This document shows positions 39,395 to 51,474 of a stretch of DNA of 51,474 bases, piece after piece. The first letter of the stretch is position 1. Each line of letters opens with the position of its first letter. Position numbers and translations under genes: made by a program. The stretch lies in the sequence record MZ501090; one strand, 5' to 3'. The notes under the pieces are model-generated. The model was given only the letters and a program-made list of their open reading frames with translations, did no database searches and was not told the DNA's origin. The DNA is from Escherichia phage KarlJaspers.

Positions 39395-39414
39395 CATTTA
39401 ACAAAAAATGCTAT
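39395..39414 (-). promoter_or_regulatory. conserved intergenic motif copy
   Basis: Minus strand ATAGCATTTTTTGTTAAATG, then palindrome TGCGGTATTATTGCCGCA. Confidence 0.55.
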
Positions 39415-39632
39415 TTGATCCGCTCTATGCTAACTAAGATTTTTTCTGGTTCCCTTGCGCTATAGCAATTCGCGGTTACGGAATCAGCAAAATCAAAATA
39501 AAGTGATTTGTGGTAAGAAAGACCAATCAGCCATCCAACCATCGTTTTCTTTATTGGCCTGACTATATCGCCAGGCTTGAAGGTTTTTGTTGCTGAATGA
39601 GTCACCTTATAGCGATATTCAGCCTTGATCAC
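39411..39632 (-). CDS. hypothetical protein
   Basis: 73 aa ORF. Confidence 0.4.
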   Translation of the reverse strand: MIKAEYRYKVTHSATKTFKPGDIVRPIKKTMVGWLIGLSYHKSLYFDFADSVTANCYSAREPEKILVSIERIK

Positions 39633-40015
39633 TTATACATAGCCTCAAACAAATGACATCCACCAGCGGAAAAGCCTACTTCTTCGCGGTATAGCGTCCA
39701 GCGGTCGCCAGCTTCATCAAACACATAACCAGCAACAGCGCCAAGCGCGCGGCCTTGCTCAATCTGGTAGCGCTTTCCTTCTTTGAAATGCTTTTTGCAC
39801 GGGATCTTGTGATCTACAAAGGTGCATTTAATTGTTTTTGTCTTGATATGACGATAGTCAGACTCAACAGCGTTTTGCCACTTGCTACCCTTTGTAATGC
39901 TCTTTACCTGGAATTGTTCCAATTCGATCACATCATCGCTACCAGCAATTTTTTCGTATACAGCTATATAACGACCGTTCATCAAAACATTGGTTTTATT
40001 GCAGATAACTTTCAT
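39629..40015 (-). CDS. hypothetical protein
   Basis: 128 aa ORF downstream of motif copy. Confidence 0.4.
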   Translation of the reverse strand: MKVICNKTNVLMNGRYIAVYEKIAGSDDVIELEQFQVKSITKGSKWQNAVESDYRHIKTKTIKCTFVDHKIPCKKHFKEGKRYQIEQGRALGAVAGYVFDEAGDRWTLYREEVGFSAGGCHLFEAMYK

Positions 40016-40070
40016 CGTTTATTTCTCCTTTCGTTCCGGTGAAGTGATTATGCCAGGCTTTTACACCTGG

Positions 40071-40090
40071 CTTTTAACAAAAAGTGCTAT
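40071..40090 (-). promoter_or_regulatory. conserved intergenic motif copy
   Basis: Minus strand ATAGCACTTTTTGTTAAAAG, then GCCAGG...CCTGGC hairpin and ATAATC. Confidence 0.6.
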
Positions 40091-40797
40091 TTTGCGTTTG
40101 CTTCAAAGACGGCGCGAGCAAAACCGCGCGGTGTGAGGGAGCGGATCATCTTTGTGCGAGATGATTTTCCGCCAGTTTTGGCCCAACCAGGATTATCCTT
40201 GTCGTCCTCTTTCGGAAGGATTGTTGCGCGCGGAGGAATAACAAAACCGTTTCCAGTCCAAAGACATGTTTTCTTAAAGTACCGATCCCGCGCCGGAATA
40301 ATATCAGGGAAGTCGGGATGCTTATCATCTTCCGGCAGATAGCCAGCATAATCGCACGGATGGAACGTATAATCAGGCTTGCGCCATAACGTTGACAGCT
40401 TGCCTACAGGATTCTCTATCATGTACGGAACACCGAAATAATCAGCGATATGCGACGCAATTTTGCAAGTGTCGGCGGCCTCATCCTGGAAAGATGGATT
40501 CTCAAGGCGTTTTTTGGCCCAATGGCGAGATCCGCTATTTGCAAGGTCAGTGCATGGAGGGAATGCCATAATAAAATCAGGCTTACCCCAATTTTCAAGT
40601 TTTGCGGTATATTTGAATAGCTCATCAATCCACACATTAACGTAAAAAATATTGTCGTGGATTATGCGCACTGATTGGTAGTCGCCATGATCTGCATCAT
40701 CGTAATTAAAGCAAATGCACTTATATCCAGCGTCGGCCCAATCTTTAACAGCCTTTCCAGATCCATCAAACAAAGAGAAAATTAAACCTTTATACAT
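40087..40797 (-). CDS. C5-cytosine DNA methyltransferase-like protein (compact)
   Basis: Motif I LFDGSG, motif IV FPPCTDLANSG, ENV-like MIENPVG, motif IX-like RSLTPRGFARA; only 236 aa. Confidence 0.5.
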   Translation of the reverse strand: MYKGLIFSLFDGSGKAVKDWADAGYKCICFNYDDADHGDYQSVRIIHDNIFYVNVWIDELFKYTAKLENWGKPDFIMAFPPCTDLANSGSRHWAKKRLENPSFQDEAADTCKIASHIADYFGVPYMIENPVGKLSTLWRKPDYTFHPCDYAGYLPEDDKHPDFPDIIPARDRYFKKTCLWTGNGFVIPPRATILPKEDDKDNPGWAKTGGKSSRTKMIRSLTPRGFARAVFEANAK

Positions 40798-40806
40798 TTC
40801 ATTACC

Positions 40807-41031
40807 TCAAAACGGAAAGCATCTAGGACAGTTCGGATCAAAATTGCAACCACAATCATTAACAATCATAGTTGGATCTGCAAATGCAGCGCCGCATTCA
40901 TGGTTCATATCCATTTCACCCAACGCATCATCAAGCGTCCTGATTTTATATGCGACTTCAAGCGCTGCCTCTTTATTCAGTCCGGCATCTTCTGCTTTTT
41001 GCAGTCGCTCAAAAAAACCGTCTTGACTCAT
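40807..41031 (-). CDS. hypothetical Cys-rich small protein
   Basis: 74 aa with HECG and CGCNFDPNCPRC cysteine cluster. Confidence 0.4.
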   Translation of the reverse strand: MSQDGFFERLQKAEDAGLNKEAALEVAYKIRTLDDALGEMDMNHECGAAFADPTMIVNDCGCNFDPNCPRCFPF

Positions 41032-41141
41032 TTAATAAACTCCTTAACAACAGCAAGAATAATCACAAGCCCAGCAGTAAAAACAAGCAAACCGACAAGG
41101 CCAATCATAACACCAAATAAAATATCAAGCGTCTTAATCAT
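41028..41141 (-). CDS. small single-TM membrane peptide (37 aa)
   Basis: MIKTLDILFGVMIGLVGLLVFTAGLVIILAVVKEFIK; stop TGA overlaps next ATG (ATGA); not in ORF track. Confidence 0.35.
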   Translation of the reverse strand: MIKTLDILFGVMIGLVGLLVFTAGLVIILAVVKEFIK

Positions 41142-41188
41142 TTATTCACCATTGATAAAACGGGAGTCGGAAACCTCCCATTGATTAA

Positions 41189-41449
41189 TCATACAGCCTT
41201 CCAGCTTTCAATAAACATGCTGTTTTCTTCCAGCAGTTTAATCAATTCTTCGCGCGTATATTTGCGGATTTTACTACCTGGATGTGAGCCAACAACAAAC
41301 ACACCTTTACCACTCGTGATTGTTAACTGGTTGATTCCGCAAGATTTATCCATCTTAATGGCGACGCGGTGATGTGCATCAACAGTGTGCATGATGTTAG
41401 TGACTTTAGCTTTCATTATGCGATCCTCATTGTACTTAGTGTAGGACAT
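41189..41449 (-). CDS. hypothetical protein
   Basis: 86 aa ORF. Confidence 0.4.
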   Translation of the reverse strand: MSYTKYNEDRIMKAKVTNIMHTVDAHHRVAIKMDKSCGINQLTITSGKGVFVVGSHPGSKIRKYTREELIKLLEENSMFIESWKAV

Positions 41450-41454
41450 TATAT

Positions 41455-41688
41455 TTACTTCAAATTCTCGATCTTGTTATTGCCAATTGAAGAATGAACG
41501 CAACGCTCTTGCGACTCCTTGTCGCCATGAACATCAATATAATAACCAGGTATGACAGTAAAAAACCAATTGCCACGCCAGAAGAAATAAAGGCCATGCT
41601 TGCTTCCTTTCGCGCATTTATTAGCATTTTTAGGTATTGGAAGTCCGTGTACTCTACGCAATTCTACATTCTTGTTAAAATTTGGCAT
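41455..41688 (-). CDS. hypothetical protein
   Basis: 77 aa ORF. Confidence 0.4.
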   Translation of the reverse strand: MPNFNKNVELRRVHGLPIPKNANKCAKGSKHGLYFFWRGNWFFTVIPGYYIDVHGDKESQERCVHSSIGNNKIENLK

Positions 41689-41882
41689 TACACAACCTCC
41701 ATAATAGTATTGAATCCACGCAGTTTGAAAGCATTTCCATGTTTAACAACGTTCCATGTCAGGCCGGAGTGATACGCAACCATATCCTCAAGATCAATGG
41801 TGATGATAGCGCCTTTCTTAAAGATTCCTTTCTCGTGAGTAGTGTCACGCTGTACAACTTTAACATCAACTTGATTTTCCAT
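41688..41882 (-). CDS. hypothetical protein
   Basis: 64 aa ORF downstream of motif copy. Confidence 0.4.
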   Translation of the reverse strand: MENQVDVKVVQRDTTHEKGIFKKGAIITIDLEDMVAYHSGLTWNVVKHGNAFKLRGFNTIMEVV

Positions 41883-41937
41883 TTTTAAATCCTCGTTCGT
41901 TGTCGATGCGCATAATATACCAATCAGAGGCGCATCG

Positions 41938-41957
41938 GTTTTAACAAAAAGTGCTAT
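41938..41957 (-). promoter_or_regulatory. conserved intergenic motif copy
   Basis: Minus strand ATAGCACTTTTTGTTAAAAC, then 8-bp CGATGCGC stem with TATATTAT in loop. Confidence 0.6.
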
Positions 41958-42263
41958 TTAGTCCAGGAGTTCGATTTCGCGCTCGCCAGTTAACGGATCT
42001 TTAATCCAGAATCCAAGCGCCTCACCGTAAATACCGCCATAGAATCCAAGCGCCGACAGTTCCTCACCTTTAACAAATACCAGATCACCGCTACGGCTTA
42101 CGTGAGACACGTTAACGATAACCGGAAATGTGCGGTTTTTAAATGCAGGCCGCAGGGCGTAACACCCGTTATTGAGAAAACGTGCTTTGCGCTTAACTGG
42201 AATAGGTGCATTGATTCGCGCCATCTTTATTTCTCCTTCATTGTTGATCGTGTTTAACGGCAA
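41958..42263 (-). CDS. hypothetical protein
   Basis: 101 aa ORF. Confidence 0.4.
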   Translation of the reverse strand: MPLNTINNEGEIKMARINAPIPVKRKARFLNNGCYALRPAFKNRTFPVIVNVSHVSRSGDLVFVKGEELSALGFYGGIYGEALGFWIKDPLTGEREIELLD

Positions 42264-42483
42264 TCAGAACATCACAGGACTCGTTAATAAATTTTGCCAT
42301 GCGCTTATCATCACCAACAGGGATTAGCGCATTACACTCGCGCTTGCTACTGAATACCGTCACTTTATGAAACGATGCGAACGGCATCGACGGGAACTCG
42401 ACTGTTTGCGTCAAGATCCGCAATCCCATCTTTTTGGCCCTTACCTGGGCCTCGGCAAGTTCAAAATCCACTTCATTAATCAT
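42238..42483 (-). CDS. hypothetical protein
   Basis: 81 aa ORF. Confidence 0.4.
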   Translation of the reverse strand: MINEVDFELAEAQVRAKKMGLRILTQTVEFPSMPFASFHKVTVFSSKRECNALIPVGDDKRMAKFINESCDVLIAVKHDQQ

Positions 42484-42752
42484 TTCTTGATCTCCTCAGC
42501 AATAAATTTCAGGACTTTGCGCAAAAACACTTCATTATTGATGGTCGCTGGCAATTCCTCTTTCACTTCTTGCGGCAGGTAAACGTTGCCATGCCAGGTC
42601 AAGCAATCGTAGTTGATACGATAAGAGCAAAGCCACTCGCAATCGTTATCCGCTTCCCAAATGCAGAGTTGCAGAACATCGCCGAAGTCTTCAACAGTCA
42701 GGTCCAGACCGTGACGCTTTGCAAAGTTGAAAGTGGTTTTGCTGATGTTCAT
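42480..42752 (-). CDS. hypothetical protein
   Basis: 90 aa ORF, first gene of leftward early operon. Confidence 0.4.
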   Translation of the reverse strand: MNISKTTFNFAKRHGLDLTVEDFGDVLQLCIWEADNDCEWLCSYRINYDCLTWHGNVYLPQEVKEELPATINNEVFLRKVLKFIAEEIKK

Positions 42753-42815
42753 TTGCTTTCTCCTGATGGGTATCTCGTTTCGATGGGATAACTATACCAG
42801 GTTATCCCGATCGTG

Positions 42816-42834: not shown

Positions 42835-43099
42835 TTGCTGACTGGTCATTATTCCACATATTCCATTAATCAGGAATAACAGGAATAATTCATTCGCGAT
42901 CACCTGGATTGTGAGACTTTGAGTTTGATCAATTTTAATCAGTTGATTAACTTTTTGTGTGGAGGGGATAGAGAAATGCGGCCCTCTTGCATCCTTTCCG
43001 GCAATCCTGGCGCGCACATCTGTTATTTCTGTTCCCCGTGTTATCTCAAATAAGCCTCCGCACTTTTAGATAACAGAATCGGCGTTCATCAACAAAAAG

Positions 43100-43300
43100 A
43101 ACAAAATAAAATTTATATATATACCCATAAAATCAATAAGTTAGTTATATATGTATTTATATTTGTTATTTACTGTTGAGCTTGTTCTATTGGTATATGG
43201 TGGGGTGGTATTGTTTGTGGTGATATGTATGTGTGATTGTATATTTTTTAATCAATGGTGATGTGTGGTGATTTTTGTATGTATATATATGGGTATGGGG
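43100..43300. repeat. AT/GT-rich non-coding island, copy 2 (homologous to 20960-21130)
   Basis: Core AAATCAATAAGTTAGT at 43130-43145 plus GT-rich tracts (GGTGATTTTTGTATG). Confidence 0.7.
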
Positions 43301-43424
43301 CAATCCTCCGTCAACCAAGTCAACAAGGTCATTTTTAACAGAAAAACCAATGGCTTAACTGAAGCATTTTGTTATCTTTAAACACGCCATGCGCCAAAAA
43401 TTGTTATTAAAACACAAAAATACA

Positions 43425-43455
43425 TTGACATGCAGGAAGGGCAAGGCAATAATGC
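43425..43455 (+). promoter_or_regulatory. candidate promoter for rightward early operon
   Basis: TTGACA at 43425-43430; -10 assignment ambiguous (TAATGC at 19 nt). Confidence 0.3.
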
Positions 43456-43489
43456 ATTAAGTTTAAACGCAACAAAAGGAGTAGATGCC

Positions 43490-43960
43490 ATGATCGAAGA
43501 AAATATTAGCACCATGTCGCGTAGTGAGTTCTGCGATATGCTTCGCGACCTGGGCGCGGCAATTGGTAGTGGTGAGCGTAATAATGTATTCATGCCAGCG
43601 CTTTTTTTGTGCGCTAATGTGGAGAACGGCGAAGCAATTACGGCATCGTACATGCGCCAGGTTGTCAACCGCGTACCTGAAGTAAAGCAAAAAGGCGTGA
43701 TCAGCATTAAGCGAAAGGTGACTGATGAGGGTGATGGCTTTGTGTTTGCGCTCACTGAAGCCAAAAGCAAACCTCGTGTTCTGACTGGGGATGATATAGC
43801 GAAACTTGAAATCAAGTGGCGAGCAAAGTTTATTGCTCAACTACTGAAAACACAGCCGCGAATCAGTGATCTGGAAGGTGAGCGCCTGGAGGGTGCGGCA
43901 ATCGCACTTGAGCGAATGAATGAAATGCTCAACGAGATGGTAAAGGTGGGGGATGAATAA
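43490..43960 (+). CDS. hypothetical early protein
   Basis: ATG 43490 with AAGGAG RBS (track start 43430 lacks RBS); 156 aa. Confidence 0.45.
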   Translation: MIEENISTMSRSEFCDMLRDLGAAIGSGERNNVFMPALFLCANVENGEAITASYMRQVVNRVPEVKQKGVISIKRKVTDEGDGFVFALTEAKSKPRVLTGDDIAKLEIKWRAKFIAQLLKTQPRISDLEGERLEGAAIALERMNEMLNEMVKVGDE

Positions 43961-44220
43961 TGAATAAGGCATTAATTGGAGTTTTGATTGCAATTGCTAC
44001 CCTGACCGGATGCGAAAAGGCATCTGAATCAACGGTAGTCGTAGGCGTGGAGTCAGATTTTAAAGTCGGTCGCCTGTTTACTGTTGATGGATGCACTGCG
44101 TACCGATTCTATGACAACGGTCGGGCAATCTATTACACCAATTGTAAGGGCGCAACGGATAGCACATACCGCAGCGGCAAAAACGTAATGCACCAACAAG
44201 TCACAACAGATATGAAATAG
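43960..44220 (+). CDS. early lipoprotein (possible exclusion protein)
   Basis: Signal peptide with lipobox LTGC; 86 aa. Confidence 0.5.
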   Translation: MNKALIGVLIAIATLTGCEKASESTVVVGVESDFKVGRLFTVDGCTAYRFYDNGRAIYYTNCKGATDSTYRSGKNVMHQQVTTDMK

Positions 44221-44236
44221 CACTTTTTGTTAAAAC
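44217..44236 (+). promoter_or_regulatory. conserved intergenic motif copy
   Basis: ATAGCACTTTTTGTTAAAAC overlapping stop; GCCAGG-tgcaaat-CCTGGC hairpin then ATAATA. Confidence 0.6.
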
Positions 44237-44292
44237 GCCAGGTGCAAATCCTGGCATAATAGCCTCATCGAAACGAGATTGAGGAAAACAAA

Positions 44293-44478
44293 ATGGCACG
44301 TCGCATTACCAAAGACCTTAAAGTACTGAACAAAGAAAACGTAGTTAAAATCCTGGTAATCTGGGGATACAACGAAGAAACAGCAAAGCAGAAGGTAGAT
44401 GCGGGTTATGACCTGGCTGTAAAAGCAATGCCAAACGACGACGCCAAAGGCATTGCAAACTATGTAGCTTTCTTTTAA
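44293..44478 (+). CDS. hypothetical protein
   Basis: 61 aa ORF with GAGGAAAA RBS. Confidence 0.4.
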   Translation: MARRITKDLKVLNKENVVKILVIWGYNEETAKQKVDAGYDLAVKAMPNDDAKGIANYVAFF

Positions 44479-44493
44479 TTAGCAGGTGAATAA

Positions 44494-44679
44494 ATGAAAA
44501 CGAAATTAGTCCATAAATCAGAAATCAAGATCGGCGATACTGTGATTCACAACGGAGAGCTTAGAACGGTTGGCAAAGAGTCAATAAGCCGCGATGAATT
44601 TATGGGGATCTTGTTGTTCGGTGACTCTTATCGGCTGGGTTATAAAATGGTTGAGCTTGTGGAAGAGGTAAAATTCTAA
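44494..44679 (+). CDS. hypothetical protein
   Basis: 61 aa ORF. Confidence 0.4.
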   Translation: MKTKLVHKSEIKIGDTVIHNGELRTVGKESISRDEFMGILLFGDSYRLGYKMVELVEEVKF

Positions 44680-44699
44680 ATAGCACTTTTTGTTAAAAC
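44680..44699 (+). promoter_or_regulatory. conserved intergenic motif copy
   Basis: ATAGCACTTTTTGTTAAAAC directly after stop TAA; ATAATA downstream. Confidence 0.55.
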
Positions 44700-44777
44700 T
44701 CAAAAACGATAACCAGGCATAATACACACATAGGGCGGCACGGCGTCGCCCAGTTAAACCAATCAGGAGAAAGCACT

Positions 44778-45668
44778 ATGTTAAAACTTGCTAACATTAA
44801 ATTCCCGATCACCTTCGAATCTCGCGGCGTTGGTCACTTCATGTTTTCCGACAAAAATACATGCACTAAGTTTAACGAATACGGAAAGCCTGATGTTTCA
44901 ACAATGGAGATTGAGCACCTCATTGATGCGCACAATAAGCACTACAACTCGCTTAAAGACTATGGCTACGCAATGCCAGGCTATACATGTTTTCACTACA
45001 AGCCATATAAGGGCCAGGTGTTACCAGTGCGCTCACCGGAACGCGCAGAGATTCCGATGGTCGAGATGAAAACCTGCGACTATAAAAAATTGTGGTGCTT
45101 AAGAGTGGATAACATCAAGTATCCGATCACGTTCTACACGGCTGGTAATTCAACGATTCGCTTCACATCGCGCGAAAATGGCGTTTATAGCGATGGTACG
45201 AAATCAGAGTTGAAAGTTGATTTCTTTGTCAATGGTCACAACAAATTCAATCCGCACAACGAAGAGGATAAGGTTTACTACGTGGAAGACATTACAAAAC
45301 ACTTGTTTGGAGATGCGCCAATTGGCGGCGGGAAGACGTCAATTCAGCAAATCATTGGCGAGGAGATCCACAAGGCAGCCGTTAAAATGAAAGCACCTGT
45401 AGGCTGGCGTATTGACAAGAGCGCCTTTGCATATCAAGAAATCGTAACGCAGGGCAAAATTGAAGATATGCCGCTTGGCGCTTCAATCATCGGCATCAGA
45501 GACAATAACGGCGACTGGAATGATGTTTCATTCCCTGTCAAGCGGATCGAGTTGCACGAAGACCTGATTTGCATCCTGGCGCATCATGGCAGCTATAAGG
45601 ACAAGCCATTCGCCGCCGAGCTTAACATCAAGCGCGGAACTATGGTTAAGTGGAAAGTCAAAGTGTAA
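44778..45668 (+). CDS. hypothetical protein with internal duplication
   Basis: 296 aa; NIKFPITFESRG (N-terminus) repeated as NIKYPITFYTAGN about 100 residues later. Confidence 0.45.
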   Translation: MLKLANIKFPITFESRGVGHFMFSDKNTCTKFNEYGKPDVSTMEIEHLIDAHNKHYNSLKDYGYAMPGYTCFHYKPYKGQVLPVRSPERAEIPMVEMKTCDYKKLWCLRVDNIKYPITFYTAGNSTIRFTSRENGVYSDGTKSELKVDFFVNGHNKFNPHNEEDKVYYVEDITKHLFGDAPIGGGKTSIQQIIGEEIHKAAVKMKAPVGWRIDKSAFAYQEIVTQGKIEDMPLGASIIGIRDNNGDWNDVSFPVKRIELHEDLICILAHHGSYKDKPFAAELNIKRGTMVKWKVKV

Positions 45669-45688
45669 ATAGCACGAATTGTTAAAAC
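45669..45688 (+). promoter_or_regulatory. conserved intergenic motif copy (GAATT variant)
   Basis: ATAGCACGAATTGTTAAAAC; GGCC...TATAAT...GGCC downstream. Confidence 0.55.
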
Positions 45689-45741
45689 TCAAATGTGGGG
45701 CCAGGTATAATGGCCTCACTTTCAACGAAGGAGATAAAACG

Positions 45742-45960
45742 ATGTACATTAGCAAGAAGATGAAATGCGTTTCCGTTAATTATGGTTGTGCTGGAATGTT
45801 CAAGCCTGGCGAAATCTATACGGCGCAAAAACTGAAATCATCAACCGGATCCTTTTACGTCAGCAACAGCAAAGGGCATCGCATGTTCCTGAACGGAGGT
45901 GAAGGCACTAAGGTTATGGCACACGCTATGGTAATTGCTGAATTTGAGGAAGTGAAATAA
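45742..45960 (+). CDS. hypothetical protein
   Basis: ATG 45742 with AAGGAG RBS; 72 aa. Confidence 0.4.
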   Translation: MYISKKMKCVSVNYGCAGMFKPGEIYTAQKLKSSTGSFYVSNSKGHRMFLNGGEGTKVMAHAMVIAEFEEVK

Positions 45961-46499
45961 TGAAAAAATACGAATTTGAACTTTGGGGCAGCAAATACCA
46001 TTTTTCCACTAGCAAGCCGATTGTTATCGTTGACCTGGACGGAACGTTATCAGACGGAACGCATCGCTTACACCTTCTTCCGACAGAGGATTTACACCTT
46101 ACAGAAAGCTGGTCTGAGTTCAATAAGGCGGCTGTTGGCGATTCGCCGATTAAGAGCACTGTTGCAGTGGTTAACGGTTTGTGGATGTCAGGATTTGCCA
46201 TCGTTATCCTGACCGGACGTAGCGATGAAGTGATGGAGGACACCTGCAAATGGATTAACGAAAACGGCATCAAGTACGATGCGTTAATCATGCGCCGCAA
46301 GGAAGACAACCGCAAAGACACAATCATCAAAGAAGAAGTCTTGCGCGCTATCGGACTGGAAAACATTGTGTGCGCTTTTGATGATTCGCCGAACGTGGTT
46401 AAGCACTTCCGAAGCCTGGGAATCACAACCTATCAGGTCACGGAATACGACAAGCCACACAATCATATCCAATCGCATGGCGTGGAGGAATTGAAATGA
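45960..46499 (+). CDS. HAD-family phosphatase (T4 Pnk phosphatase-domain-like)
   Basis: DLDGT motif I, TGR motif II, RKDTIIKEEVL and FDDSP; resembles T4 Pnk phosphatase (recalled from memory). Confidence 0.55.
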   Translation: MKKYEFELWGSKYHFSTSKPIVIVDLDGTLSDGTHRLHLLPTEDLHLTESWSEFNKAAVGDSPIKSTVAVVNGLWMSGFAIVILTGRSDEVMEDTCKWINENGIKYDALIMRRKEDNRKDTIIKEEVLRAIGLENIVCAFDDSPNVVKHFRSLGITTYQVTEYDKPHNHIQSHGVEELK

Positions 46500-46657
46500 C
46501 CTGGATTCTATTTGTGATTATCACAAGCTACAATTCAGCCGCCATTGAGTCTCGCGAGTTCCACGGTGAATCAAGATGTCAGGCCGCGAGAGAGCAAGTA
46601 ATTTTGCATATGTCAGATAACGATAAAGAAGTTGAAGTATTCTGCATTCGTAAATAG
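46496..46657 (+). CDS. hypothetical small protein (53 aa)
   Basis: ORF below track cutoff; hydrophobic N-terminus WILFVIITSY; stop TAG inside motif copy. Confidence 0.3.
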   Translation: MTWILFVIITSYNSAAIESREFHGESRCQAAREQVILHMSDNDKEVEVFCIRK

Positions 46658-46673
46658 CACTTTTTGCAAAAAC
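46654..46673 (+). promoter_or_regulatory. conserved intergenic motif copy (variant)
   Basis: ATAGCACTTTTTGCAAAAAC; GGGCTT...AAGCCC hairpin enclosing TATAGT downstream. Confidence 0.55.
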
Positions 46674-46728
46674 AGATTGTCGGGCTTGCGGTATAGTAAG
46701 CCCATCGACAACAAACGAGGATTAAATC

Positions 46729-46992
46729 ATGGTTAATAAAGTTGAGTTTTTCAAAGCGGTAGACAAGATTGACGGCGCGCCAAGTTTCTTTGCTATCCAT
46801 TCCATTGACGGCGAAGACGTTGAATACAACGTGATTAGTCGAGACGGTATATCAAAACTTAGTGACCTGGTGGGTTATATTGTGGCGAACGGGAAATGTG
46901 CATGGCCCGATTCACCACGAGAGCCGCGCCGCCGCGACATGCAAAATCCAGTTCTGCTTTACACGCTGGTAATTGAAGTAGTCAACAAATGA
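46729..46992 (+). CDS. hypothetical protein
   Basis: 87 aa with GAGGA RBS. Confidence 0.4.
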   Translation: MVNKVEFFKAVDKIDGAPSFFAIHSIDGEDVEYNVISRDGISKLSDLVGYIVANGKCAWPDSPREPRRRDMQNPVLLYTLVIEVVNK

Positions 46993-47174
46993 TTTGGTTA
47001 CTTGTATTTTTAGTAGTTTTCTTTTATATTTCAGGCTTATTCATCTTCCGCGCATTGGTTAAAGAGTGTGATTGCACTGATAAAGATCAGCCTCTTGTTC
47101 TGATGTTCTGGTTTGTGTGGTTTTGGGTGGCGCTTTACCAGATTGTACGGGATGAAAGCGGTTTTAAGTGGTGA
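46989..47174 (+). CDS. small membrane protein (two predicted TM helices)
   Basis: 61 aa; LLVFLVVFFYISGLFIF and LVLMFWFVWFWVALY hydrophobic stretches. Confidence 0.4.
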   Translation: MIWLLVFLVVFFYISGLFIFRALVKECDCTDKDQPLVLMFWFVWFWVALYQIVRDESGFKW

Positions 47175-47229
47175 TTCTTACTATAGCGCATTCACGCAGT
47201 GCGCTATGTTGAGATAACAACAGGAGTTC

Positions 47230-47367
47230 ATGAAGATGCGAAACTTCGAAAAAATCGTAACCAAGAAAAAGCGCTACAGCTACGACGAGCACCGCGAGAT
47301 GAATCAACGCTATCGCAAGAAGCGCCAGCGCACAGGTAAACATTCAAGCAGATATGGAGAAAACTAA
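47230..47367 (+). CDS. hypothetical small basic protein (45 aa)
   Basis: CAGGAG RBS; Lys/Arg-rich; stop adjoins kinase start; not in ORF track. Confidence 0.3.
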   Translation: MKMRNFEKIVTKKKRYSYDEHREMNQRYRKKRQRTGKHSSRYGEN

Positions 47368-47368
47368 T

Positions 47369-47959
47369 ATGAAGCGAGACATTATCATCCTTAACGGACC
47401 GCCAGGAGTTGGCAAGGATACGCTTGCGGCATACTTAACTGGCCATCGTTACGCAGCCGTTAAAGCGTCGTTTAAGCAACCGATGTTTGATATTGCATTC
47501 TCCATGCTTGGCGTTTACCTATATGACGAGTTCATTGATCTGTATAACGACCGCGAGCAGAAAGAAAAGCCTCAAGCAATCTTGCAAGGCAATTCGCCTC
47601 GCAAGTTCATGATCTGGATTAGCGAAGAAGTCATGAAGCCAGCTTTTGGCGAGCAATATTTCGGAAATCGCATGGTTGAGCAAGTACACGAGATGTACAG
47701 AGATTTGGCTGTTGTAATTAGTGATGGCGGATTCCCTGAAGAAATCAAGCCGCTCGTTAAGGCAGGCCATGAAGTTCACATTTGCCGACTGCATCGCGAA
47801 GGATTCACGTTTGATGGCGATTCGCGAAACTATATTGACCTGAGCGGATACCATCACCGAGTCAAGCATTACGACTTCACAATGATTGATGGCGAGCCAG
47901 AAAAGACTGTTGACGAGATCATCAAAACGGTGCAGTGGAAACACACAAAGATTGAATAG
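47369..47959 (+). CDS. P-loop nucleotide kinase (dNMP kinase-like, putative)
   Basis: Walker A GPPGVGKDT near N-terminus; ATG 47369 preferred over 47354 (GGAG 9 nt upstream). Confidence 0.5.
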   Translation: MKRDIIILNGPPGVGKDTLAAYLTGHRYAAVKASFKQPMFDIAFSMLGVYLYDEFIDLYNDREQKEKPQAILQGNSPRKFMIWISEEVMKPAFGEQYFGNRMVEQVHEMYRDLAVVISDGGFPEEIKPLVKAGHEVHICRLHREGFTFDGDSRNYIDLSGYHHRVKHYDFTMIDGEPEKTVDEIIKTVQWKHTKIE

Positions 47960-47975
47960 CACGAATTGCTAAAAG
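47956..47975 (+). promoter_or_regulatory. conserved intergenic motif copy (GAATT variant)
   Basis: ATAGCACGAATTGCTAAAAG overlapping stop TAG; TATAAT downstream. Confidence 0.5.
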
Positions 47976-48029
47976 CGGGGCACAATGCCTCGCTATAATA
48001 CAAACACCAATCAACGAGAGGAAATCATC

Positions 48030-48431
48030 ATGGTAGAGTTAAACGACATTCGCGTTGGGACAAAATTTCGCGTAACCTGGGCAGATAAATATTGCGGAGT
48101 TAGCAAGGGCCAGATTGTTACTGTGGATAGTATTTATCGCGGATGCAGCAAAGACTTTCGGCGCCCACGCATCAAGAATGGCTATATCATTACTCGCCGT
48201 TTTGGGTTTGATCATTATTGCGTAGTGTCAACTCAAGGCGCTTTGATTGAGCTTAAGCGAATAAGCGATCATCGCGGCTGTCATGTTAAGACAATGAAAA
48301 CACCATTTCAGCGAGCGCGATACGATGCGCGACGGATGCGCCGACTTGCTCGAAATGCGATCAAGTTCAAAAAGCCTGGCAGTAATTTTTACAGAATGTA
48401 CAAAGGGATTGCGCGAAATGCTGGGAAATAA
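48030..48431 (+). CDS. hypothetical protein
   Basis: ATG 48030 with GAGAGGAAA RBS; basic C-terminus. Confidence 0.4.
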   Translation: MVELNDIRVGTKFRVTWADKYCGVSKGQIVTVDSIYRGCSKDFRRPRIKNGYIITRRFGFDHYCVVSTQGALIELKRISDHRGCHVKTMKTPFQRARYDARRMRRLARNAIKFKKPGSNFYRMYKGIARNAGK

Positions 48432-48530
48432 CAACAACGCAACCAATCCAAAGCCGCCATTTGATTTTCATGAAATCATGATTGTGTTATTCTTGATTCT
48501 CTTAGTTGTTTATTCAGTGAGGGCCGCAAT

Positions 48531-48794
48531 ATGGTTTTTAATGCACTAAAACGAATCTTTAAACCTGAATACCGGATCGTTGCTTGCACAGAATGTAAGA
48601 TTTATTACCTGCAACGCCGCCGCGTTATTAGTGGGGATTGTGAATATCTAACTGATGATGCTTTCGGATTTTGGGCTATGGAGTTCAATAGCTACAGCGA
48701 AGCGCGTGAATACGCTAAAAAGTTGCACAAGTTCAGACCTTACAAGCTGCGTTTGCTGGTTGTCAAAAAATGCGATGTGTGGGATCACGAATGA
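48531..48794 (+). CDS. hypothetical protein
   Basis: 87 aa ORF. Confidence 0.35.
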   Translation: MVFNALKRIFKPEYRIVACTECKIYYLQRRRVISGDCEYLTDDAFGFWAMEFNSYSEAREYAKKLHKFRPYKLRLLVVKKCDVWDHE

Positions 48795-48970
48795 AAAGAG
48801 TAATTATCATTTTTATTGCCGTTATCGCTGGTTGTTACCTGGCTTATAATTATAGCGGCATTGTTGAGTCAATCGGCGGGTTGATTATCTTCATGGCTGG
48901 TGGGTATGCTGGCTATTGTGATGGATTCGAGAACGGAAAGCGTTACGTGCTGACCGGAAAAAAGAAGTAA
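48791..48970 (+). CDS. small membrane protein
   Basis: MKRVIIIFIAVIAGCYLAY and GGLIIFMAGGYAGY hydrophobic segments. Confidence 0.35.
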   Translation: MKRVIIIFIAVIAGCYLAYNYSGIVESIGGLIIFMAGGYAGYCDGFENGKRYVLTGKKK

Positions 48971-49013
48971 TGTTAACCGCGCCGCTTCGGTGGCGCTAAA
49001 AGGAGGAAACAAA

Positions 49014-49301
49014 ATGGCTAAAAGCAATCGTAAAATGTTGATTAACGCATTCGAAAAGGAAGCGCTTGAGCGTGGTTGGAATGACTCATTTCACACAGCA
49101 AACTGTATCCGCCGTTACGGATTCAAGGATTGCCGATCCTGGGCGCGTCAAATGGCTTCATGGTATGATCTTGATGCGCATTACCTTGATATGGATTGCG
49201 CCCTGGTTGAAATGATTGAGCAGGCCGCACTAGAGGATCGACCATTAACGCAATCTGATTTTGACGATTTTGTGCGCGATGAAATCTATTACATGAGCTA
49301 A
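49014..49301 (+). CDS. hypothetical protein
   Basis: ATG 49014 with AAAGGAGGAAA RBS; 95 aa. Confidence 0.45.
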   Translation: MAKSNRKMLINAFEKEALERGWNDSFHTANCIRRYGFKDCRSWARQMASWYDLDAHYLDMDCALVEMIEQAALEDRPLTQSDFDDFVRDEIYYMS

Positions 49302-49320
49302 TAGCACTTTTTGTTAAAAC
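49301..49320 (+). promoter_or_regulatory. conserved intergenic motif copy
   Basis: ATAGCACTTTTTGTTAAAAC overlapping stop TAA. Confidence 0.55.
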
Positions 49321-49376
49321 TTCCGCGAGGGCATTTGTTAAAGTGTCCTCATTGAAGCGAAACAGAGTAAATCAAA

Positions 49377-49589
49377 ATGAAAATTCGAATCACCAGGGTT
49401 GACATTGACCGTAACGACGGAAGCATTACCCTTGAACAATGTGGATTCAAAGTTGGTGACATTGTAGAGGTTGACGGATTCTTTCGCGATGGTTCTTACT
49501 GCGTGTTAGCAATCCGCAACACGGAAGAAATTCGAATCGGTGATAACATCGGCGTAAACCATGACGAATGCGAGGTAGTAGAGGAATGA
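49377..49589 (+). CDS. hypothetical protein
   Basis: 70 aa ORF. Confidence 0.4.
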   Translation: MKIRITRVDIDRNDGSITLEQCGFKVGDIVEVDGFFRDGSYCVLAIRNTEEIRIGDNIGVNHDECEVVEE

Positions 49590-49894
49590 TCACGATTAAC
49601 CTTTCAGAAGAGCAAGCAAAGAAACTCCTGCATGCTGTAGGTTCTCGTGCGCTTTGCGGATCAACTGATGAAATGATGATTGATCATGAGGTTGCAAGAG
49701 AGCTTTTTACTCAGCTTGAGCAAAAATTCTCACCACGTCCGACTGACGCGGCAGAAACCGCAAAATGGCTTGCTGAGAATGGATACACGGCTTTAAAAGT
49801 TCATAACTGGAAGCGAAAGAATGAAAGCATGGAGTCGGCATTTGCCAATTACGCCAAATCAGTTGCAAAGCAGGTAACGGAGAAATATAAATGA
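49586..49894 (+). CDS. hypothetical protein
   Basis: ATG 49586 overlapping previous stop (ATGA), GAGGTAGTAGAGGA upstream. Confidence 0.4.
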   Translation: MITINLSEEQAKKLLHAVGSRALCGSTDEMMIDHEVARELFTQLEQKFSPRPTDAAETAKWLAENGYTALKVHNWKRKNESMESAFANYAKSVAKQVTEKYK

Positions 49895-50205
49895 TTTACA
49901 TTCACTACTACCATATCGGGACAAACGAAAACAAGCAGGAGCGCAGAACAATTTGTGACACACTCGACGATGCTAAAGCACAGCAACGCGTTTTGGGTGG
50001 TGTAATTCAGGCTTTTGAGCCAGTGGAAGACATAGAGCACCGAGAGCATTTGAAAGAGATTATTGTTGATGAAATTTCATCACTAATCGACGACATGACA
50101 AATCACGGTCCTGGTTCTACGTGGGAAGAAGCTGGATCGACGGAGTGGGATTGTGCTAAGGTTGCAACGCTTAACAACTTTCGTGAGTTGCTCGACGATT
50201 TTTAA
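49891..50205 (+). CDS. hypothetical protein
   Basis: 104 aa ORF, coupled start. Confidence 0.4.
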   Translation: MIYIHYYHIGTNENKQERRTICDTLDDAKAQQRVLGGVIQAFEPVEDIEHREHLKEIIVDEISSLIDDMTNHGPGSTWEEAGSTEWDCAKVATLNNFRELLDDF

Positions 50206-50215
50206 TTAAAATTGA

Positions 50216-50260
50216 ATGCCTCATACAGCGAACAGGACGCATTTTGACGAGGCATTTTTT
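50216..50260 (+). terminator. terminator-like hairpin
   Basis: ATGCCTC...GAGGCAT stem with long loop followed by TTTTTT. Confidence 0.45.
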
Positions 50261-50275
50261 AGGTAAGGTGATTCA

Positions 50276-50404
50276 ATGGATAGCTACATAAAACCGTCGC
50301 AGTGGTGCGCACAGAAGCAAGAGGAAGCATTGGAGCGCGGCGATACTGAAACAGCAATGCACTATTTCGAAATGTACAACTTGTGGAAGGGTAGAGGTCT
50401 GTAA
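50276..50404 (+). CDS. hypothetical small protein (42 aa)
   Basis: AAGGTGA RBS; stop overlaps next ATG; not in ORF track. Confidence 0.3.
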   Translation: MDSYIKPSQWCAQKQEEALERGDTETAMHYFEMYNLWKGRGL

Positions 50405-50634
50405 TGTTTGGAATGAATGAGGCGCAATTCAACGCTGCAAAACGCCAGGCTAAGAAGTGCGGCGAGGCAATGAAGGCGGATGTTGAAAAGCGCGGGAAGT
50501 ATGTTGATGAAGTCATGAAGGGCATTATTGCCGAACATTATCAGCCAGTTGCGCCAATGCTGACAATTACCCAATTCATCTGGTTGTGTGGTTATCTTCG
50601 TGGGAGATGGGGAAACGCATTTGACCGCGAATGA
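50404..50634 (+). CDS. hypothetical protein
   Basis: 76 aa ORF. Confidence 0.4.
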   Translation: MFGMNEAQFNAAKRQAKKCGEAMKADVEKRGKYVDEVMKGIIAEHYQPVAPMLTITQFIWLCGYLRGRWGNAFDRE

Positions 50635-50663
50635 TTGACAACGATTTCCTGATTGGTTAGCAT
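50635..50663 (+). promoter_or_regulatory. sigma70-like promoter
   Basis: TTGACA - 17 nt - TAGCAT. Confidence 0.5.
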
Positions 50664-50669
50664 ATTCAA

Positions 50670-50770
50670 CGTTTACATAAGAGCGGCATTAGTGCCGAAC
50701 GGGTGGCGCGGTTGCCACGCAACAACGGCGATATGCAGGTTTTTACCGTAAGACGTATCGCCTTTTTTTT
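50670..50770 (+). ncRNA. candidate small RNA or leader/attenuator (three hairpins ending in terminator)
   Basis: Downstream of promoter: CGGCA...TGCCG, GTGGC...GCCAC, GGCGATA...TATCGCC + TTTTTTTT; no ORF. Confidence 0.3.
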
Positions 50771-50782
50771 ATAGGTGAATAT

Positions 50783-51016
50783 ATGGAAAAGTACAAATTA
50801 ACTTTCATGTTTAATAGCATGGTGATGAATCCATTAAATGGTTACGCTTGCAATAGCTTTTCTGTTACCGTTAATGAGGATGAAATTGATGATGATGGAA
50901 AACTCATTCGAATTGGTGAATACTTGTACCCCGTTCACAATATCAATTGCATCAAACGCGAGATCGTAAAAGATGAAGTACAAGGTAAGGTTGACGATCA
51001 GGCGAATGGGGCGTAA
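50783..51016 (+). CDS. hypothetical protein
   Basis: 77 aa ORF with AGGTGA RBS. Confidence 0.4.
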   Translation: MEKYKLTFMFNSMVMNPLNGYACNSFSVTVNEDEIDDDGKLIRIGEYLYPVHNINCIKREIVKDEVQGKVDDQANGA

Positions 51017-51158
51017 TTGCTCGTCATGTAGACAAAGTTTTGAATGTGAGGTTGAAGCGCGCGGAGAGCTTGAGGCAGCAGCAAGAGCAAAAGAGTTGTC
51101 CGGCGCTAATCAAGACACTCACCAGTTTTCAATAGATCTTGTAAGGAAAATGTCATGA
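50973..51158 (+). CDS. hypothetical protein (start uncertain)
   Basis: 61 aa ORF overlapping previous gene in a different frame. Confidence 0.25.
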   Translation: MKYKVRLTIRRMGRNCSSCRQSFECEVEARGELEAAARAKELSGANQDTHQFSIDLVRKMS

Positions 51159-51394
51159 GTTCTGTAATTATTGGTTTGGTTGCTTTAATCATTGGTGTTC
51201 TAATCGGCTTTGTTGCTGTATCTTTCGTGGTGGCTGTCGGTGTTCGCTATAAGTCAAAAAAAGGTGAATTTGCTTTAGCGTTTTGGGATGAAGAACAGAA
51301 AGTTTGGCAGGTTCGCGGTCACTATTTATCAATCGGTGGCAGGATTCACAGCACTATGAAGACAAATCCAGAAAAAGTAAAATACAAGTATTGA
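51155..51394 (+). CDS. small membrane protein
   Basis: 79 aa; N-terminal TM helix VIIGLVALIIGVLIGFVAVSFVVAV; AAGGAAA RBS. Confidence 0.45.
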   Translation: MSSVIIGLVALIIGVLIGFVAVSFVVAVGVRYKSKKGEFALAFWDEEQKVWQVRGHYLSIGGRIHSTMKTNPEKVKYKY

Positions 51395-51401
51395 ACAACT
51401 A

Positions 51402-51425
51402 CCCGCCAAATGGCGGGTTTTTTAT
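51402..51425 (+). terminator. rho-independent terminator
   Basis: CCCGCC-aaat-GGCGGG hairpin followed by TTTTTTAT. Confidence 0.8.
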
Positions 51426-51474
51426 TGCCTGCAATTTGTCTATAATGAGGCTTTGTTATAAAGGAGGGCGCATT

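Follow-up and report, generated by a model that had tools for sequence, protein, structure and literature searches.

A left-arm accessory region of 25 small genes in the T1-like Escherichia phage KarlJaspers, with its repeated cassettes and a structured leader RNA

The window, which is the whole stretch of 51,474 nucleotides analysed (Escherichia phage KarlJaspers, MZ501090), is a complete genome of a Hanrivervirus (T1-like, Drexlerviridae) with 92-95% nucleotide identity to the deposited Hanriverviruses. The initial annotation described a rightward early block of about 20 small genes at 43490-51394. The block was found as described and is indeed rightward, with small and non-structural genes, but the count is 25 in the present gene model, all densely packed on the plus strand. 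Coding sequence makes up 7115 of 7905 nt (90%), and the GC skew is positive across the entire block. The block is not purely coding: promoter-type cassettes recur in it, and it also holds three terminators and a structured RNA. The start at 43490 was correctly placed; an AGGAG Shine-Dalgarno (SD) sequence lies 8 nt upstream, while an alternative ATG at 43430 was rejected because it sits within a TTGACA-17-AATAAT promoter. All 25 ORFs, even those of 42-45 aa, are kept as proteins across six Hanriverviruses, and pN/pS is below 1 for every one of them (0.01-0.60). The coding support is weakest for g14, due to its shortness and its overlap with both neighbours. At 13 of the 24 junctions, neighbouring genes share 1-44 nt, and the number drops to 12 with a g12 start at 47369, in agreement with the translationally coupled starts noticed before. 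Searches of Pfam, PHROGs, NCBIfam, PADLOC, and PDB sequences assigned a function to only two products, g7 and g12; the other 23 match families of unknown function or nothing. The earlier remark that most ORFs lack recognisable motifs needs correction for g7 (HAD_PNKP) and g12 (PHROG 139). Homology of most ORFs to housekeeping or structural phage proteins was looked for and not found.

The first gene, g1 (43490..43960, 156 aa), belongs to DUF7174; TLS gp01 is 38% identical to it, and T1 ST77 matches the family weakly. Its structure model (pLDDT 80) shows an alpha/beta domain and a helical hairpin, with no significant structural neighbour except uncharacterised Drexlerviridae proteins, and no fold was assigned to it. 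The early lipoprotein reported before is g2 (43960..44220, 86 aa), whose predicted signal peptide and lipobox LTGC (Glu at +2) are present; its match to DUF4884 is weak and under the cut-off. With its small size and canonical lipobox, g2 is comparable to the exclusion lipoproteins Cor (T1/phi80) and Llp (T5), and the same may apply to g16. However, g2 does not adjoin receptor-binding genes, and its resemblance to the lipoprotein at the Cor position of the same genome is confined to the signal peptide, the mature parts being unrelated. Next come g3 (44293..44478, 61 aa, DUF7421) and g4 (44494..44679, 61 aa, phrog_3623, function not assigned). In g5 (44778..45668, 296 aa), the internal duplication was verified: an N-terminal unit of about 55 aa recurs at residue 108 (residues 2-54 versus 108-157, 28% identity, E 2e-6). 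Both copies are matched by T1 ST70, and residues 107-295 match phrog_7116, T1 ST70, and TLS gp06, while residues 241-285 are hypervariable. The predicted structure model of g5 was unusable. For g6 (45742..45960, 72 aa), an upstream TTG start is unlikely, as the AGGAG SD belongs to the start at 45742.

The g7 product (45960..46499, 179 aa) is a stand-alone HAD 3'-phosphatase of the T4 Pnkp type (HAD_PNKP profile, 2e-22). It aligns with the phosphatase half of T4 Pnkp and retains the catalytic motifs (DLDGT, LTGR, RKD, and FDD); in the comparison with T4 PseT (PDB 1LTQ, 5UJ0), motifs I-IV of the HAD phosphatase domain are kept, whereas the P-loop 5'-kinase domain is absent. The label 'polynucleotide kinase' in database records is an overcall. 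The g8 gene (46496..46657, 53 aa), with a borderline hydrophobic stretch at the N-terminus, occurs in some relatives only, and g9 (46729..46992, 87 aa) has allelic variants of 69-98% identity. Then follow g10 (46989..47174, 61 aa), with two transmembrane (TM) segments, and the very basic g11 (47230..47367, 45 aa, net +11). The g12 product (47354..47959, 201 aa, or 196 aa from 47369) is a P-loop kinase (GPPGVGKD) of the dNMP-kinase family PHROG 139 (6e-50). This family is spread phage-wide (1439 phage records), and dNMP kinase is a frequent annotation in it. g12 resembles the phage dNMP kinases of the T4 gp1 and T5 Dnk type in profile and P-loop, but outside the P-loop no similarity to any solved or characterised kinase of this kind could be detected.

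In the right half, g13 (48030..48431, 133 aa) has a net charge of +23 and no match in family searches. It is overlapped by g14 (48418..48549, 43 aa), which also overlaps g15 (48531..48794, 87 aa, four Cys). The g16 product (48791..48970, 59 aa) has a signal-like N-terminus with the second lipobox of the block (IAGC) and a further hydrophobic segment. The one- and two-TM peptides mentioned in the initial annotation are thus g14, g16, and g25 with one segment each, and g10 with two. Further genes are g17 (49014..49301, 95 aa, phrog_8758), the acidic g18 (49377..49589, 70 aa), g19 (49586..49894, 102 aa, DUF7180), whose alleles are highly divergent and whose homologs are T1 ST60 and TLS gp21, the strongly acidic g20 (49891..50205, 104 aa, net -13), g21 (50276..50404, 42 aa), to which TLS gp23 is 83% identical, and g22 (50404..50634, 76 aa, phrog_303). 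The last of these occurs in 829 phage records and is invariant among Hanriverviruses (pN/pS 0.01).

Promoters, cassettes, and terminators, all on the plus strand, divide the block into at least nine short units. The g1-g2 promoter is of sigma70 type (43425..43453, 11/12). Cassette 1 (44217..44268, before g3) consists of ATAGCACTTTTTGTTAAAAC, a dyad, TGGCATAAT, and CAT. Five further cassettes precede g5 (44680..44731, at a 98-nt distance and with a GC hairpin in the leader), g6 (45669..45720), g9 (46654..46705), g13 (47956..48007), and g18 (49301..49352). The general layout of this family-specific cassette is ATAGCAC-N3-TTGnTAAAAC, a variable GC hairpin, a G-n-TATAAT-like box, and CAT; 18 copies were observed versus 2.8 expected, and they align gap-free with an invariant G-14 and near-invariant A-11 and T-7. 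The cassette has the same sequence and orientation as the 21-nt direct repeats of TLS, T1, and Rtp (aaATAGCACnnnTTGnTAAAA; PMC11447400), and likewise lies about 76 nt upstream of start codons, a distance which the TLS paper gave for the repeat while terming the TLS block products 'presumptive early'. To these repeats, the present analysis adds the fixed-distance G-n-TAtAnT box with CAT, the variable-sequence hairpin, significant in 85% of the copies, and the finding that copies in sense orientation precede non-structural genes only. Sense cassettes also stand 5' of the primase, two helicases, Dam, and the exclusion-type lipoprotein at the Cor position, and never before a structural gene, which supports early or middle expression. 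Since a -35 element at the 17-bp spacing is missing (the distance of TTGTTA from the hexamer is 22 bp) and the hexamer is often in a hairpin loop, the cassette may not be a plain sigma70 promoter; a factor-dependent promoter and an RNA element are the alternatives. A terminator-like hairpin with U6 follows g20 (50214..50260, z -3.4), and an intrinsic terminator (51401..51424, 7-bp GC stem and T6) separates the block from terS at the same place where one is annotated in T1, G29-2, and Motto.

It was revealed that g23-g25 form a separate unit with its own promoter, structured leader, and terminator, which had been overlooked. The genes are g23 (50783..51016, 77 aa), missing from JakobBernoulli, g24 (50973..51158, 61 aa, CxxC, phrog_2919), with homologs T1 ST56 and TLS gp27, and g25 (51155..51394, 79 aa, DUF7299), with an N-terminal TM segment. 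A second sigma70-type promoter (50635..50663, TTGACA-17-TAGCAT), whose -35 is overlapped by the g22 stop codon, drives a leader or small RNA of about 105 nt (50668..50775) with two 5' hairpins followed by a terminator hairpin with U8. Covariation supports the structure: double changes were found in 11 of the 22 pairs, which none of 500 shuffles equalled. The position of the promoter is conserved in six Drexlerviridae genera; the promoter, the 5' sequence, and the two covarying hairpins are co-positioned in T1, TLS, Motto, and the Hanriver-, Warwick-, and Henuseptimaviruses. The U-tract terminator is missing in T1, TLS, and Motto, and hence attenuation is not universal. In AHS24, the transcript at this position carries a tRNA, which suggests a generic expression slot. 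The leader has no family or similarity in Rfam, and this conserved structured RNA seems to be undescribed before. Judging from these signals of its own, the g23-g25 unit may be of another temporal class than the rest of the block.

The region is syntenic in T1 and TLS, where the pac site is likewise followed after about 0.5 kb by the small-gene block, and a terminator and terS come next. Their left arms (T1 ST77-ST55 and TLS gp01-gp28) hold 23-28 small genes on the same strand, including pnk and dmk, and have the same intergenic repeat and a terminator before terS. T1 and/or TLS homologs were found for 11 of the 25 genes (g1, g5, g7, g10, g12, g17, g19-g22, and g24), while the other 14 have no detectable counterpart there. 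Conversely, the HNH endonuclease of T1 (ST63) and the Stp-like peptide of TLS (gp05) are not in the present block, the homologs of T1 ST74 and ST71 sit in the leftward arm, and g5 has an extra N-terminal repeat. The block is mosaic, with some genes present or absent between relatives. Among phages, g1, g5, g6, g8, g9, g18, g19, and g25 alternate between about 40-75% and 97-100% identity, while the flanking genes are 95-100% identical.

Does this mosaicism mean an arsenal against host immunity? The initial annotation supposed host-takeover and anti-defence functions, and its interpretation was only partly supported, the links of block genes to such functions being indirect. A cluster of short and mostly unannotated genes that are swapped quickly between conserved flanks does resemble the accessory regions rich in counter-defence genes (Silas et al. 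preprint, 10.1101/2023.04.06.535777), and the pre-early region of T5 and the early host-takeover regions of T4 and T7 are likewise small-gene clusters expressed before structural genes; however, about half of the block genes are family-conserved (g7, g12, g19, g21, g22, and g24). T4 Pnkp acts in tRNA repair countering PrrC. In this reading g7, of which it is the closest characterised relative, would mend tRNAs that anticodon nucleases have cleaved, and g5, g19, g25, g1, and g9, all hypervariable, would be arms-race effectors. The Stp-like peptide in the homologous TLS block, the resemblance of g20 to DNA-mimic inhibitors in acidity, and the focusing of g5 variability on one C-terminal segment fit this. 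On the other hand, no product matches the known anti-defence families that could be tested, and no Stp homolog was found here. The T4 repair pathway is incomplete, as g7 lacks the kinase half and the annotation of the close relative JakobBernoulli, whose curated genome is collinear, lists no RNA ligase. The pN/pS values stay below 1 even for the variable genes. In the BASEL work, RM systems act strongly on most Drexlerviridae, with no genomic correlate found. Druantia and ARMADA also restrict them broadly. That most of the small genes inhibit host immune systems is thus rather doubtful. Still less likely is that g7 and g12 are a split polynucleotide kinase-phosphatase, in which g12 phosphorylates 5'-OH ends, g7 strips 3'-phosphates, and the host ligase seals the break. 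T4 Pnkp is just such a P-loop kinase fused to a g7-type phosphatase, T1 and TLS have kept g7 and g12 alike, and in unrelated phages (e.g. Sin4, PP99, phiAS7, and PYps3T) g12-family genes are often neighbours of a gene for a DNA ligase or for a 'polynucleotide kinase / HAD phosphatase'. Yet g12 matches the dNMP-kinase PHROG strongly and no Pnkp kinase domain in PDB, its P-loop ends in GKD, which would be typical of T4 gp1-type dNMP kinases, and the two genes lie 850 nt apart in separate transcription units.

The right end (the promoter at 50635, the leader, and g23-g25) might also not be early but an entry for late or packaging transcription. The leader would let RNA polymerase pass the leader terminator and the one before terS, either by itself, as in HK022 put, or together with a phage protein, for which the invariant g22 is a candidate. 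By analogy only, HK022 put RNAs and lambda PR'-6S RNA-tR' share a constitutive-looking promoter, an immediate two-hairpin RNA, and terminators standing ahead of downstream genes. The co-positioned promoter, 5' sequence, and hairpins across genera, the two downstream intrinsic terminators, the want of a good sigma70 promoter directly 5' of terS, and the frozen g22 always immediately 5' speak for this. It is nonetheless improbable: T1, TLS, and Motto do without the leader terminator, a near-consensus sigma70 promoter is expected to fire early without a phage factor, the AHS24 tRNA points to generic use, the leader resembles neither those RNAs in sequence nor any Rfam family, and no Q-like protein was identified.

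The explanation I favour, with reasonable confidence, is that the block is a conserved T1-like left-arm accessory region of small non-structural genes, expressed early or middle as a chain of short units. Early expression is plausible from the promoter class and the gene neighbours, and a strong terminator keeps the block apart from terS; no transcriptome or other expression data for any T1-like phage were found in the searchable literature. Lying between the divergent control region (the pac site in T1 and TLS) and the terminase genes, the block would be transcribed by host RNA polymerase. The near-consensus sigma70 promoter would drive g1-g2, the six cassettes would restart transcription before g3, g5, g6, g9, g13, and g18, and g21-g22 would lie behind the terminator 3' of g20. 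The second sigma70 promoter and the terminator-containing leader would control g23-g25, and the strong terminator would end the block. The lipoproteins g2 and g16 and the TM peptides g8, g10, g14, and g25 would be targeted to the envelope, probably for exclusion or membrane remodelling, and the basic g11 and g13 and the acidic g18 and g20 probably bind host or phage macromolecules. Such a block is a known, real, and ordinary feature, well known just 5' of the DNA-packaging genes in every T1-like phage and mostly uncharacterised. Within it, g7 and g12 would process nucleotides and nucleic-acid ends; nucleotide salvage or end-processing explains them no worse than counter-defence does, and such a role is consistent with the known reuse of host DNA by T1.

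Megablast searches of 43400-51474 and 1-20000 against GenBank phage records placed the window in the genus Hanrivervirus (Drexlerviridae, Tempevirinae), as a T1-like siphovirus with 92-97% identity to herni, Henu8, JLBYU41, JakobBernoulli (Bas07), pSf-1, and others. The first base of the window is the ATG of the small terminase gene, terS, and the ribosome-binding site of terS (AAAGGAGGG) lies at the extreme window end. Thus, the record is a complete, circularly permuted genome, and the rightward block of small genes is its right end, directly upstream of terS. In the block and in the window, no tRNA was found by ARAGORN and no RNA family by Rfam (E up to 1). I built a gene model from all plus-strand ORFs, candidate start codons, and Shine-Dalgarno (SD) sequences. 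The initial annotation had described about 20 small rightward genes; all of them are on the plus strand, but their number is 25 (g1 to g25, left to right), and they cover 90% of 43490-51394. The left boundary at 43490 was confirmed by an AGGAG SD sequence. An ATG at 43430 was rejected as the g1 start codon because no SD sequence precedes it and it falls within a TTGACA-17-AATAAT promoter. A TTG at 45679 was rejected for g6, since it lies inside one of the repeat cassettes described below and the AGGAG-ATG at 45742 agrees with the annotation of relatives. Each ORF, down to 42 aa, is kept as a protein in six Hanrivervirus loci (tblastn), and pN/pS ranges from 0.01 to 0.60 for 25 of 25 genes (Nei-Gojobori count). 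The weakest coding support is that of g14, which has 43 aa, an overlap on both sides, and 20 substitutions only. Other features noted before were also found: overlaps of 1-44 nt at 13 of the 24 junctions; transmembrane segments in g10 (two), g14, g16, and g25; a canonical lipoprotein signal (…ATLTGC) in g2 (43960-44220); and an internal duplication in g5 (44778-45668), whose N-terminal 55 or so residues are repeated at residue 108 (E 2e-6). The region is real and was accurately described, and it is an ordinary, already-catalogued region of unknown function in this phage family.

The T1 and TLS reference genomes have the same layout. They begin at pac, which is followed by about 0.5 kb without coding sequence; next come 23-28 small rightward genes, pnk and a dNMP kinase gene among them, and finally a terminator and terS. 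Homologs of 11 of the 25 block genes are present in T1 and/or TLS. Since ST77, the first gene of T1, has a weak full-length match to DUF7174, the first gene of the block, g1, appears to be family-wide. Among Hanriverviruses, the block is mosaic. Eight genes (g1, g5, g6, g8, g9, g18, g19, and g25) swap alleles, at about 40-75% identity versus 97-100%, or are missing, while terS and the leftward genes on the flanks, as well as many genes inside the block, stay at 95-100%, the pattern of an accessory region. The genes stable at 95-100% are g2-g4, g7, g12, g15, g21, and g22 (50404-50634); the last of these is invariant, with a pN/pS of 0.01, and is present in 829 phage records. Within the block, E. 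coli Hanriverviruses share 92-100% identity with about 20 records of "Campylobacter phage" (MG0656xx, host C. jejuni), which probably carry a wrong host or name assignment or are contaminated.

A mirror-image leftward arm of small genes of unknown function lies at about 37200-42800 (minus strand) and is also punctuated by cassettes. The homologs of T1 ST74 and ST71 were found in this arm of KarlJaspers (41458-41688 and 41964-42191, minus strand), whereas they belong to the rightward block in T1. Thus, the two divergent arms exchange genes, and the annotated block is one half of a bipartite divergent region. The intergenic region between the arms, 42840-43430, is unusually long (about 650 nt), with an AT- and TG-rich low-complexity stretch at 43100-43300 that has weak repeats only (TGTGGTGAT twice) and no clear iterons. 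In T1 and TLS, pac is placed in the equivalent region. In KarlJaspers, 42840-43430 could be the site of pac, of an origin, or of curved promoter-upstream DNA. The best-supported reading is that the block is the conserved accessory/early arm of a T1-like phage.

For most ORFs of the block, no recognisable motifs had been reported. In Pfam, PHROGs, and NCBIfam, searched with most or all of the products, 23 of the 25 match DUF7174, DUF7421, DUF7180, DUF7299, PHROGs of unknown function, or nothing, but g7 and g12 were assigned to enzyme families by the same databases, in which g13, g14, g15, and g23 have no match at all. PDB sequence and profile searches with g1, g5, g13, g17, g20, and g22 gave nothing significant. 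Some products are extremely basic (g13, +23; g11, +11), and g20 is strongly acidic (-13). The g5 protein has hundreds of homologs, only 75-95% identical, with the variation concentrated in residues 241-285; T1 ST70 matches both copies of its repeat. Besides this repeat, no paralogy was detected within the block below E 0.03. An AlphaFold2 model of g5 from a 56-sequence alignment (pLDDT 54) was too poor for a fold search. Several names given in relatives (L002, L004, and SFP17) have no profile support: "tail fiber protein" for the g5 homolog, "RCC1", "HNH endonuclease" for the g13 homolog and genes at the g6 position, "methyltransferase type 11" for g18, and "inducer of pleiotropic effects" or "fusion protein" for g22.

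A basic n-region, a hydrophobic h-region, and a lipobox of the form [LVI][ASTVI][GAS]C were found in both g2 (MNKALIGVLIAIATLTGC) and g16 (48791-48970; MKRVIIIFIAVIAGC), the latter being the second lipobox protein of the block (IAGC). I considered g2 as a relative of the Cor/Llp superinfection-exclusion proteins and rejected it, as only its signal peptide aligns with an 89-aa lipoprotein encoded at 20545-20814 (minus strand). Moreover, Cor/Llp genes adjoin receptor-binding genes, whereas g2 is 23 kb from the tail-tip locus. The 89-aa lipoprotein (MKKLIAVLIAAVALTGC...), whose mature part is unrelated to g2, is cassette-driven and adjoins the tail-tip/RBP locus. Superinfection-exclusion genes of the Cor/Llp type classically occupy this position. 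The six small block proteins predicted to be envelope-targeted suggest exclusion or membrane functions.

Is the block an anti-defence island? PADLOC gave 0 matches for 10 block proteins, and no defence-escape mutation mapping to the block was found in the literature. In TLS, a peptide of 26 aa is annotated as Stp, which activates the PrrC anticodon nuclease, whereas no Stp-like peptide was found in the KarlJaspers window by tblastn with TLS gp05 or T4 Stp. According to published reports, Drexlerviridae show broad sensitivity to RM, Druantia, and ARMADA. An anti-defence role is possible for some of the variable block genes, without support from homology.

The g7 protein (45960-46499, 179 aa) matches HAD_PNKP at 2e-22. 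Its nucleophile motif DxDxT is DLDGT at residues 25-29, and its LTGR, RKD...KEE, and FDD align to SGR, RKD...KEE, and IDD of T4 Pnkp, which are motifs II-IV of the HAD phosphatase domain. The PDB matches are limited to phosphatase halves (residues 196-308 of Pnkp1 and 201-298 of T4 Pnkp, 1LTQ), and one of them, 5UJ0, is an isolated phosphatase domain. In T4 Pnkp, a P-loop kinase is in the same polypeptide as the phosphatase. In contrast, g7 is a phosphatase only; neither the PDB matches nor the sequence has an N-terminal 5′-kinase domain or a P-loop. Thus, the label "polynucleotide kinase" in relatives overstates g7. The phosphatase gene has two forms. KarlJaspers, JLBYU41, phiE31-2, and G29-2 have the 179-aa form followed by the 53-aa g8, while JakobBernoulli and herni have a single 237-aa phosphatase with a different C-terminal extension. 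The long form lies at L001:4128-4841 and L003:4357-5070 in the comparison loci and was compared with 45960-46657 of the window.

The g12 protein (47354-47959; 196-201 aa) matches phrog_139, "deoxynucleoside monophosphate kinase", over residues 3-194 (5.8e-50), and its P-loop is GPPGVGKD. Against the PDB, phmmer gave generic P-loop matches only (E above 0.3), with no likeness to a solved kinase beyond the P-loop. T1 and TLS degrade the host DNA and reuse its nucleotides, according to the TLS paper (PMC11447400). The pair of a 3′-phosphatase, g7, and a dNMP-kinase-family protein, g12, fits a putative role in the salvage of host nucleotides, and the recent KanT1 paper gives the same salvage reading for the pnk/dNMP kinase gene pair. 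A rival explanation is that g7 and g12 may be a split end-healing kinase/phosphatase, as the g12 family, found in 1439 phage records, often adjoins a PNK/HAD phosphatase or a DNA ligase. In the collinear JakobBernoulli genome, none of the 91 curated features is a partner RNA ligase for tRNA repair, as judged from the annotation.

Six intergenic gaps of the block, each 70-98 nt in length, have a 21-nt family repeat, ATAGCAC-N3-TTG-N-TAAAA, which was described in the TLS paper. The repeat (ATAGCACnnnTTGnTAAAA) is oriented with transcription and lies about 76 nt upstream of the start codons. The window has 18-24 copies (24 at three or fewer mismatches), six of them in the block, versus 2.8 expected. 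The block copies, at 44217, 44680, 45669, 46654, 47956, and 49301 (all plus strand), precede g3, g5, g6, g9, g13, and g18, and each begins on the stop codon of the gene before. Outside the block, copies are at 6361, 10122, 20888, 29952, 37246, 39414, 40090, 41957, and 42834 on the minus strand and at 30423, 32941, and 33982 on the plus strand. The repeat is one element of a cassette of roughly 75 nt. A gapless alignment of the 16 sense copies extends over about 80 nt, in the order of the element, 17-18 nt, an invariant G (G-14), one base, a TATAAT-like hexamer (A2 and T6 near-invariant), CAT, a semi-conserved leader (CGAAACGA), an SD sequence, and an ATG at 72-78 nt. The consensus is identical in 31 copies pooled from T1, TLS, and the window. 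Elsewhere in the window, sense copies precede the genes for the primase, two helicases, Dam, small leftward proteins, and the 89-aa lipoprotein at the Cor/Llp position, and none of the 16 faces a structural gene. Since sense cassettes precede non-structural genes and never a structural one, the block may well be expressed non-late, and this placement is the main argument. No transcriptome of a T1-like phage was found in the literature.

Two antisense copies lie in the structural module, at 6290-6361 and 10040-10122 (both minus strand). One is just upstream of the major capsid gene and is followed by a 43-aa ORF, while the other fires into a bidirectional terminator behind the major tail gene. 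These copies may yield antisense RNAs against late transcripts. T1 has an ATAGCAC copy at L007:8362-8396, only 34 nt upstream of the terS start codon, which lacks the hexamer and the hairpin, unlike all others.

Terminator-like signals divide the right part of the block. A terminator-like hairpin with U6 is found behind g20, and a strong terminator lies between g25 and terS; g21 and g22 lack a promoter of their own and are flanked by terminators. At 50635-50663 lies a second near-consensus promoter, of the sigma70 type (TTGACA-17-TAGCAT), its -35 box being overlapped by the g22 stop codon. The RNA of the next 105 nt or so folds into two small hairpins, followed by a terminator hairpin with U8, and stops immediately short of the SD sequence of g23. 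The unit of the promoter and this leader RNA (50635-50775, plus strand) is present in 129 phage records. Compensatory changes were seen in a MAFFT alignment of nine copies from Hanriver-, Warwick-, and Henuseptimavirus. A covariance model built from those nine copies detected the leader in T1 (E 4e-5), Motto (5e-5), and TLS (5e-3), each time in the syntenic position, with the elements in the comparison loci at L007:7621-7705 (T1), L008:7821-7954, and L015:1184-1267, but no second copy in the window. When 14 sequences were aligned, pairing held in 97.8% of cells and double-sided changes were seen at 11 of 22 pairs, although these counts are somewhat biased because the alignment was fitted to the model; compensatory changes are also seen in the MAFFT alignment. 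The covariation was reached by 0 of 500 shuffles, and slid controls pair at 22-51%. Webervirus and Rogunavirus likewise retain the promoter and the transcript start (cgt-A/G-ACA-n-AAGAGG), and Rogunavirus AHS24 (L016:1385-1721) has an annotated tRNA-Arg in the equivalent transcript, at 1614-1688, between the conserved promoter and the next gene. Rfam gave no relevant match to the leader at E up to 1.

How might these elements work? The cassette has a -10-like hexamer and the invariant G-14 but no -35 box at 17 bp; a TTGTTA is 22 bp from the hexamer. A GC-rich hairpin with a copy-specific stem sequence was predicted in 28 of 33 copies (85%; mean z -3.2, p 2e-11). It fills the spacer or brackets the hexamer, which is often in the hairpin loop. 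Thus, the cassette may be a restart promoter joined to a hairpin that acts as a terminator, a 3′-end, or a processing signal, or else it may depend on a factor. As for the leader, the terminator hairpin and U-tract are present in Hanrivervirus and Warwickvirus, whereas the U-tract is missing in T1, TLS, and Motto. Thus, termination is not universal. The RNA could serve g23-g25 as a leader or attenuator, cause antitermination in the manner of put, be bound as an operator by a protein, or act as a small RNA. A bolder proposal, which I regard as unlikely, is that the leader RNA and the ATAGCAC cassettes are two parts of an undescribed regulatory system common to all Drexlerviridae. The leader would then be a new class of cis-acting RNA gating transcription from the block into the packaging/late genes, either by put-like antitermination/attenuation or by serving as the operator of a phage protein, for example the invariant g22. 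The cassettes, which have no -35 box and whose -10 box is embedded in hairpins of variable sequence, would act as factor-dependent promoter/terminator modules, and their switch would be a protein encoded in the block, for example g1, whose gene comes first after the only canonical rightward promoter.

The gene block itself adds little; the same array is present in hundreds of deposited T1-like genomes, and earlier accounts of T1 and TLS already gave it as hypothetical early genes. With its transcription-unit boundaries, the clean 25-gene model can guide the joint deletion or expression of genes, and functional screens can set the fast-evolving g1, g5, g9, g19, and g25 against the frozen g22, g21, g3, g4, and g15. 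About half of the T1 proteins still have no assignment. Among the labels, "polynucleotide kinase" is corrected to 3′-phosphatase only, and "tail fiber", "HNH", "methyltransferase", and "RCC1" are unsupported. Since T1-like phages are common laboratory contaminants and phage-therapy candidates, an understanding of the region has practical value. The interest is regulatory and lies in the cassette architecture and the undescribed leader RNA: the hairpin-bearing cassette and the leader could explain how gene expression is timed in a phage that has neither an RNA polymerase nor a sigma factor of its own.
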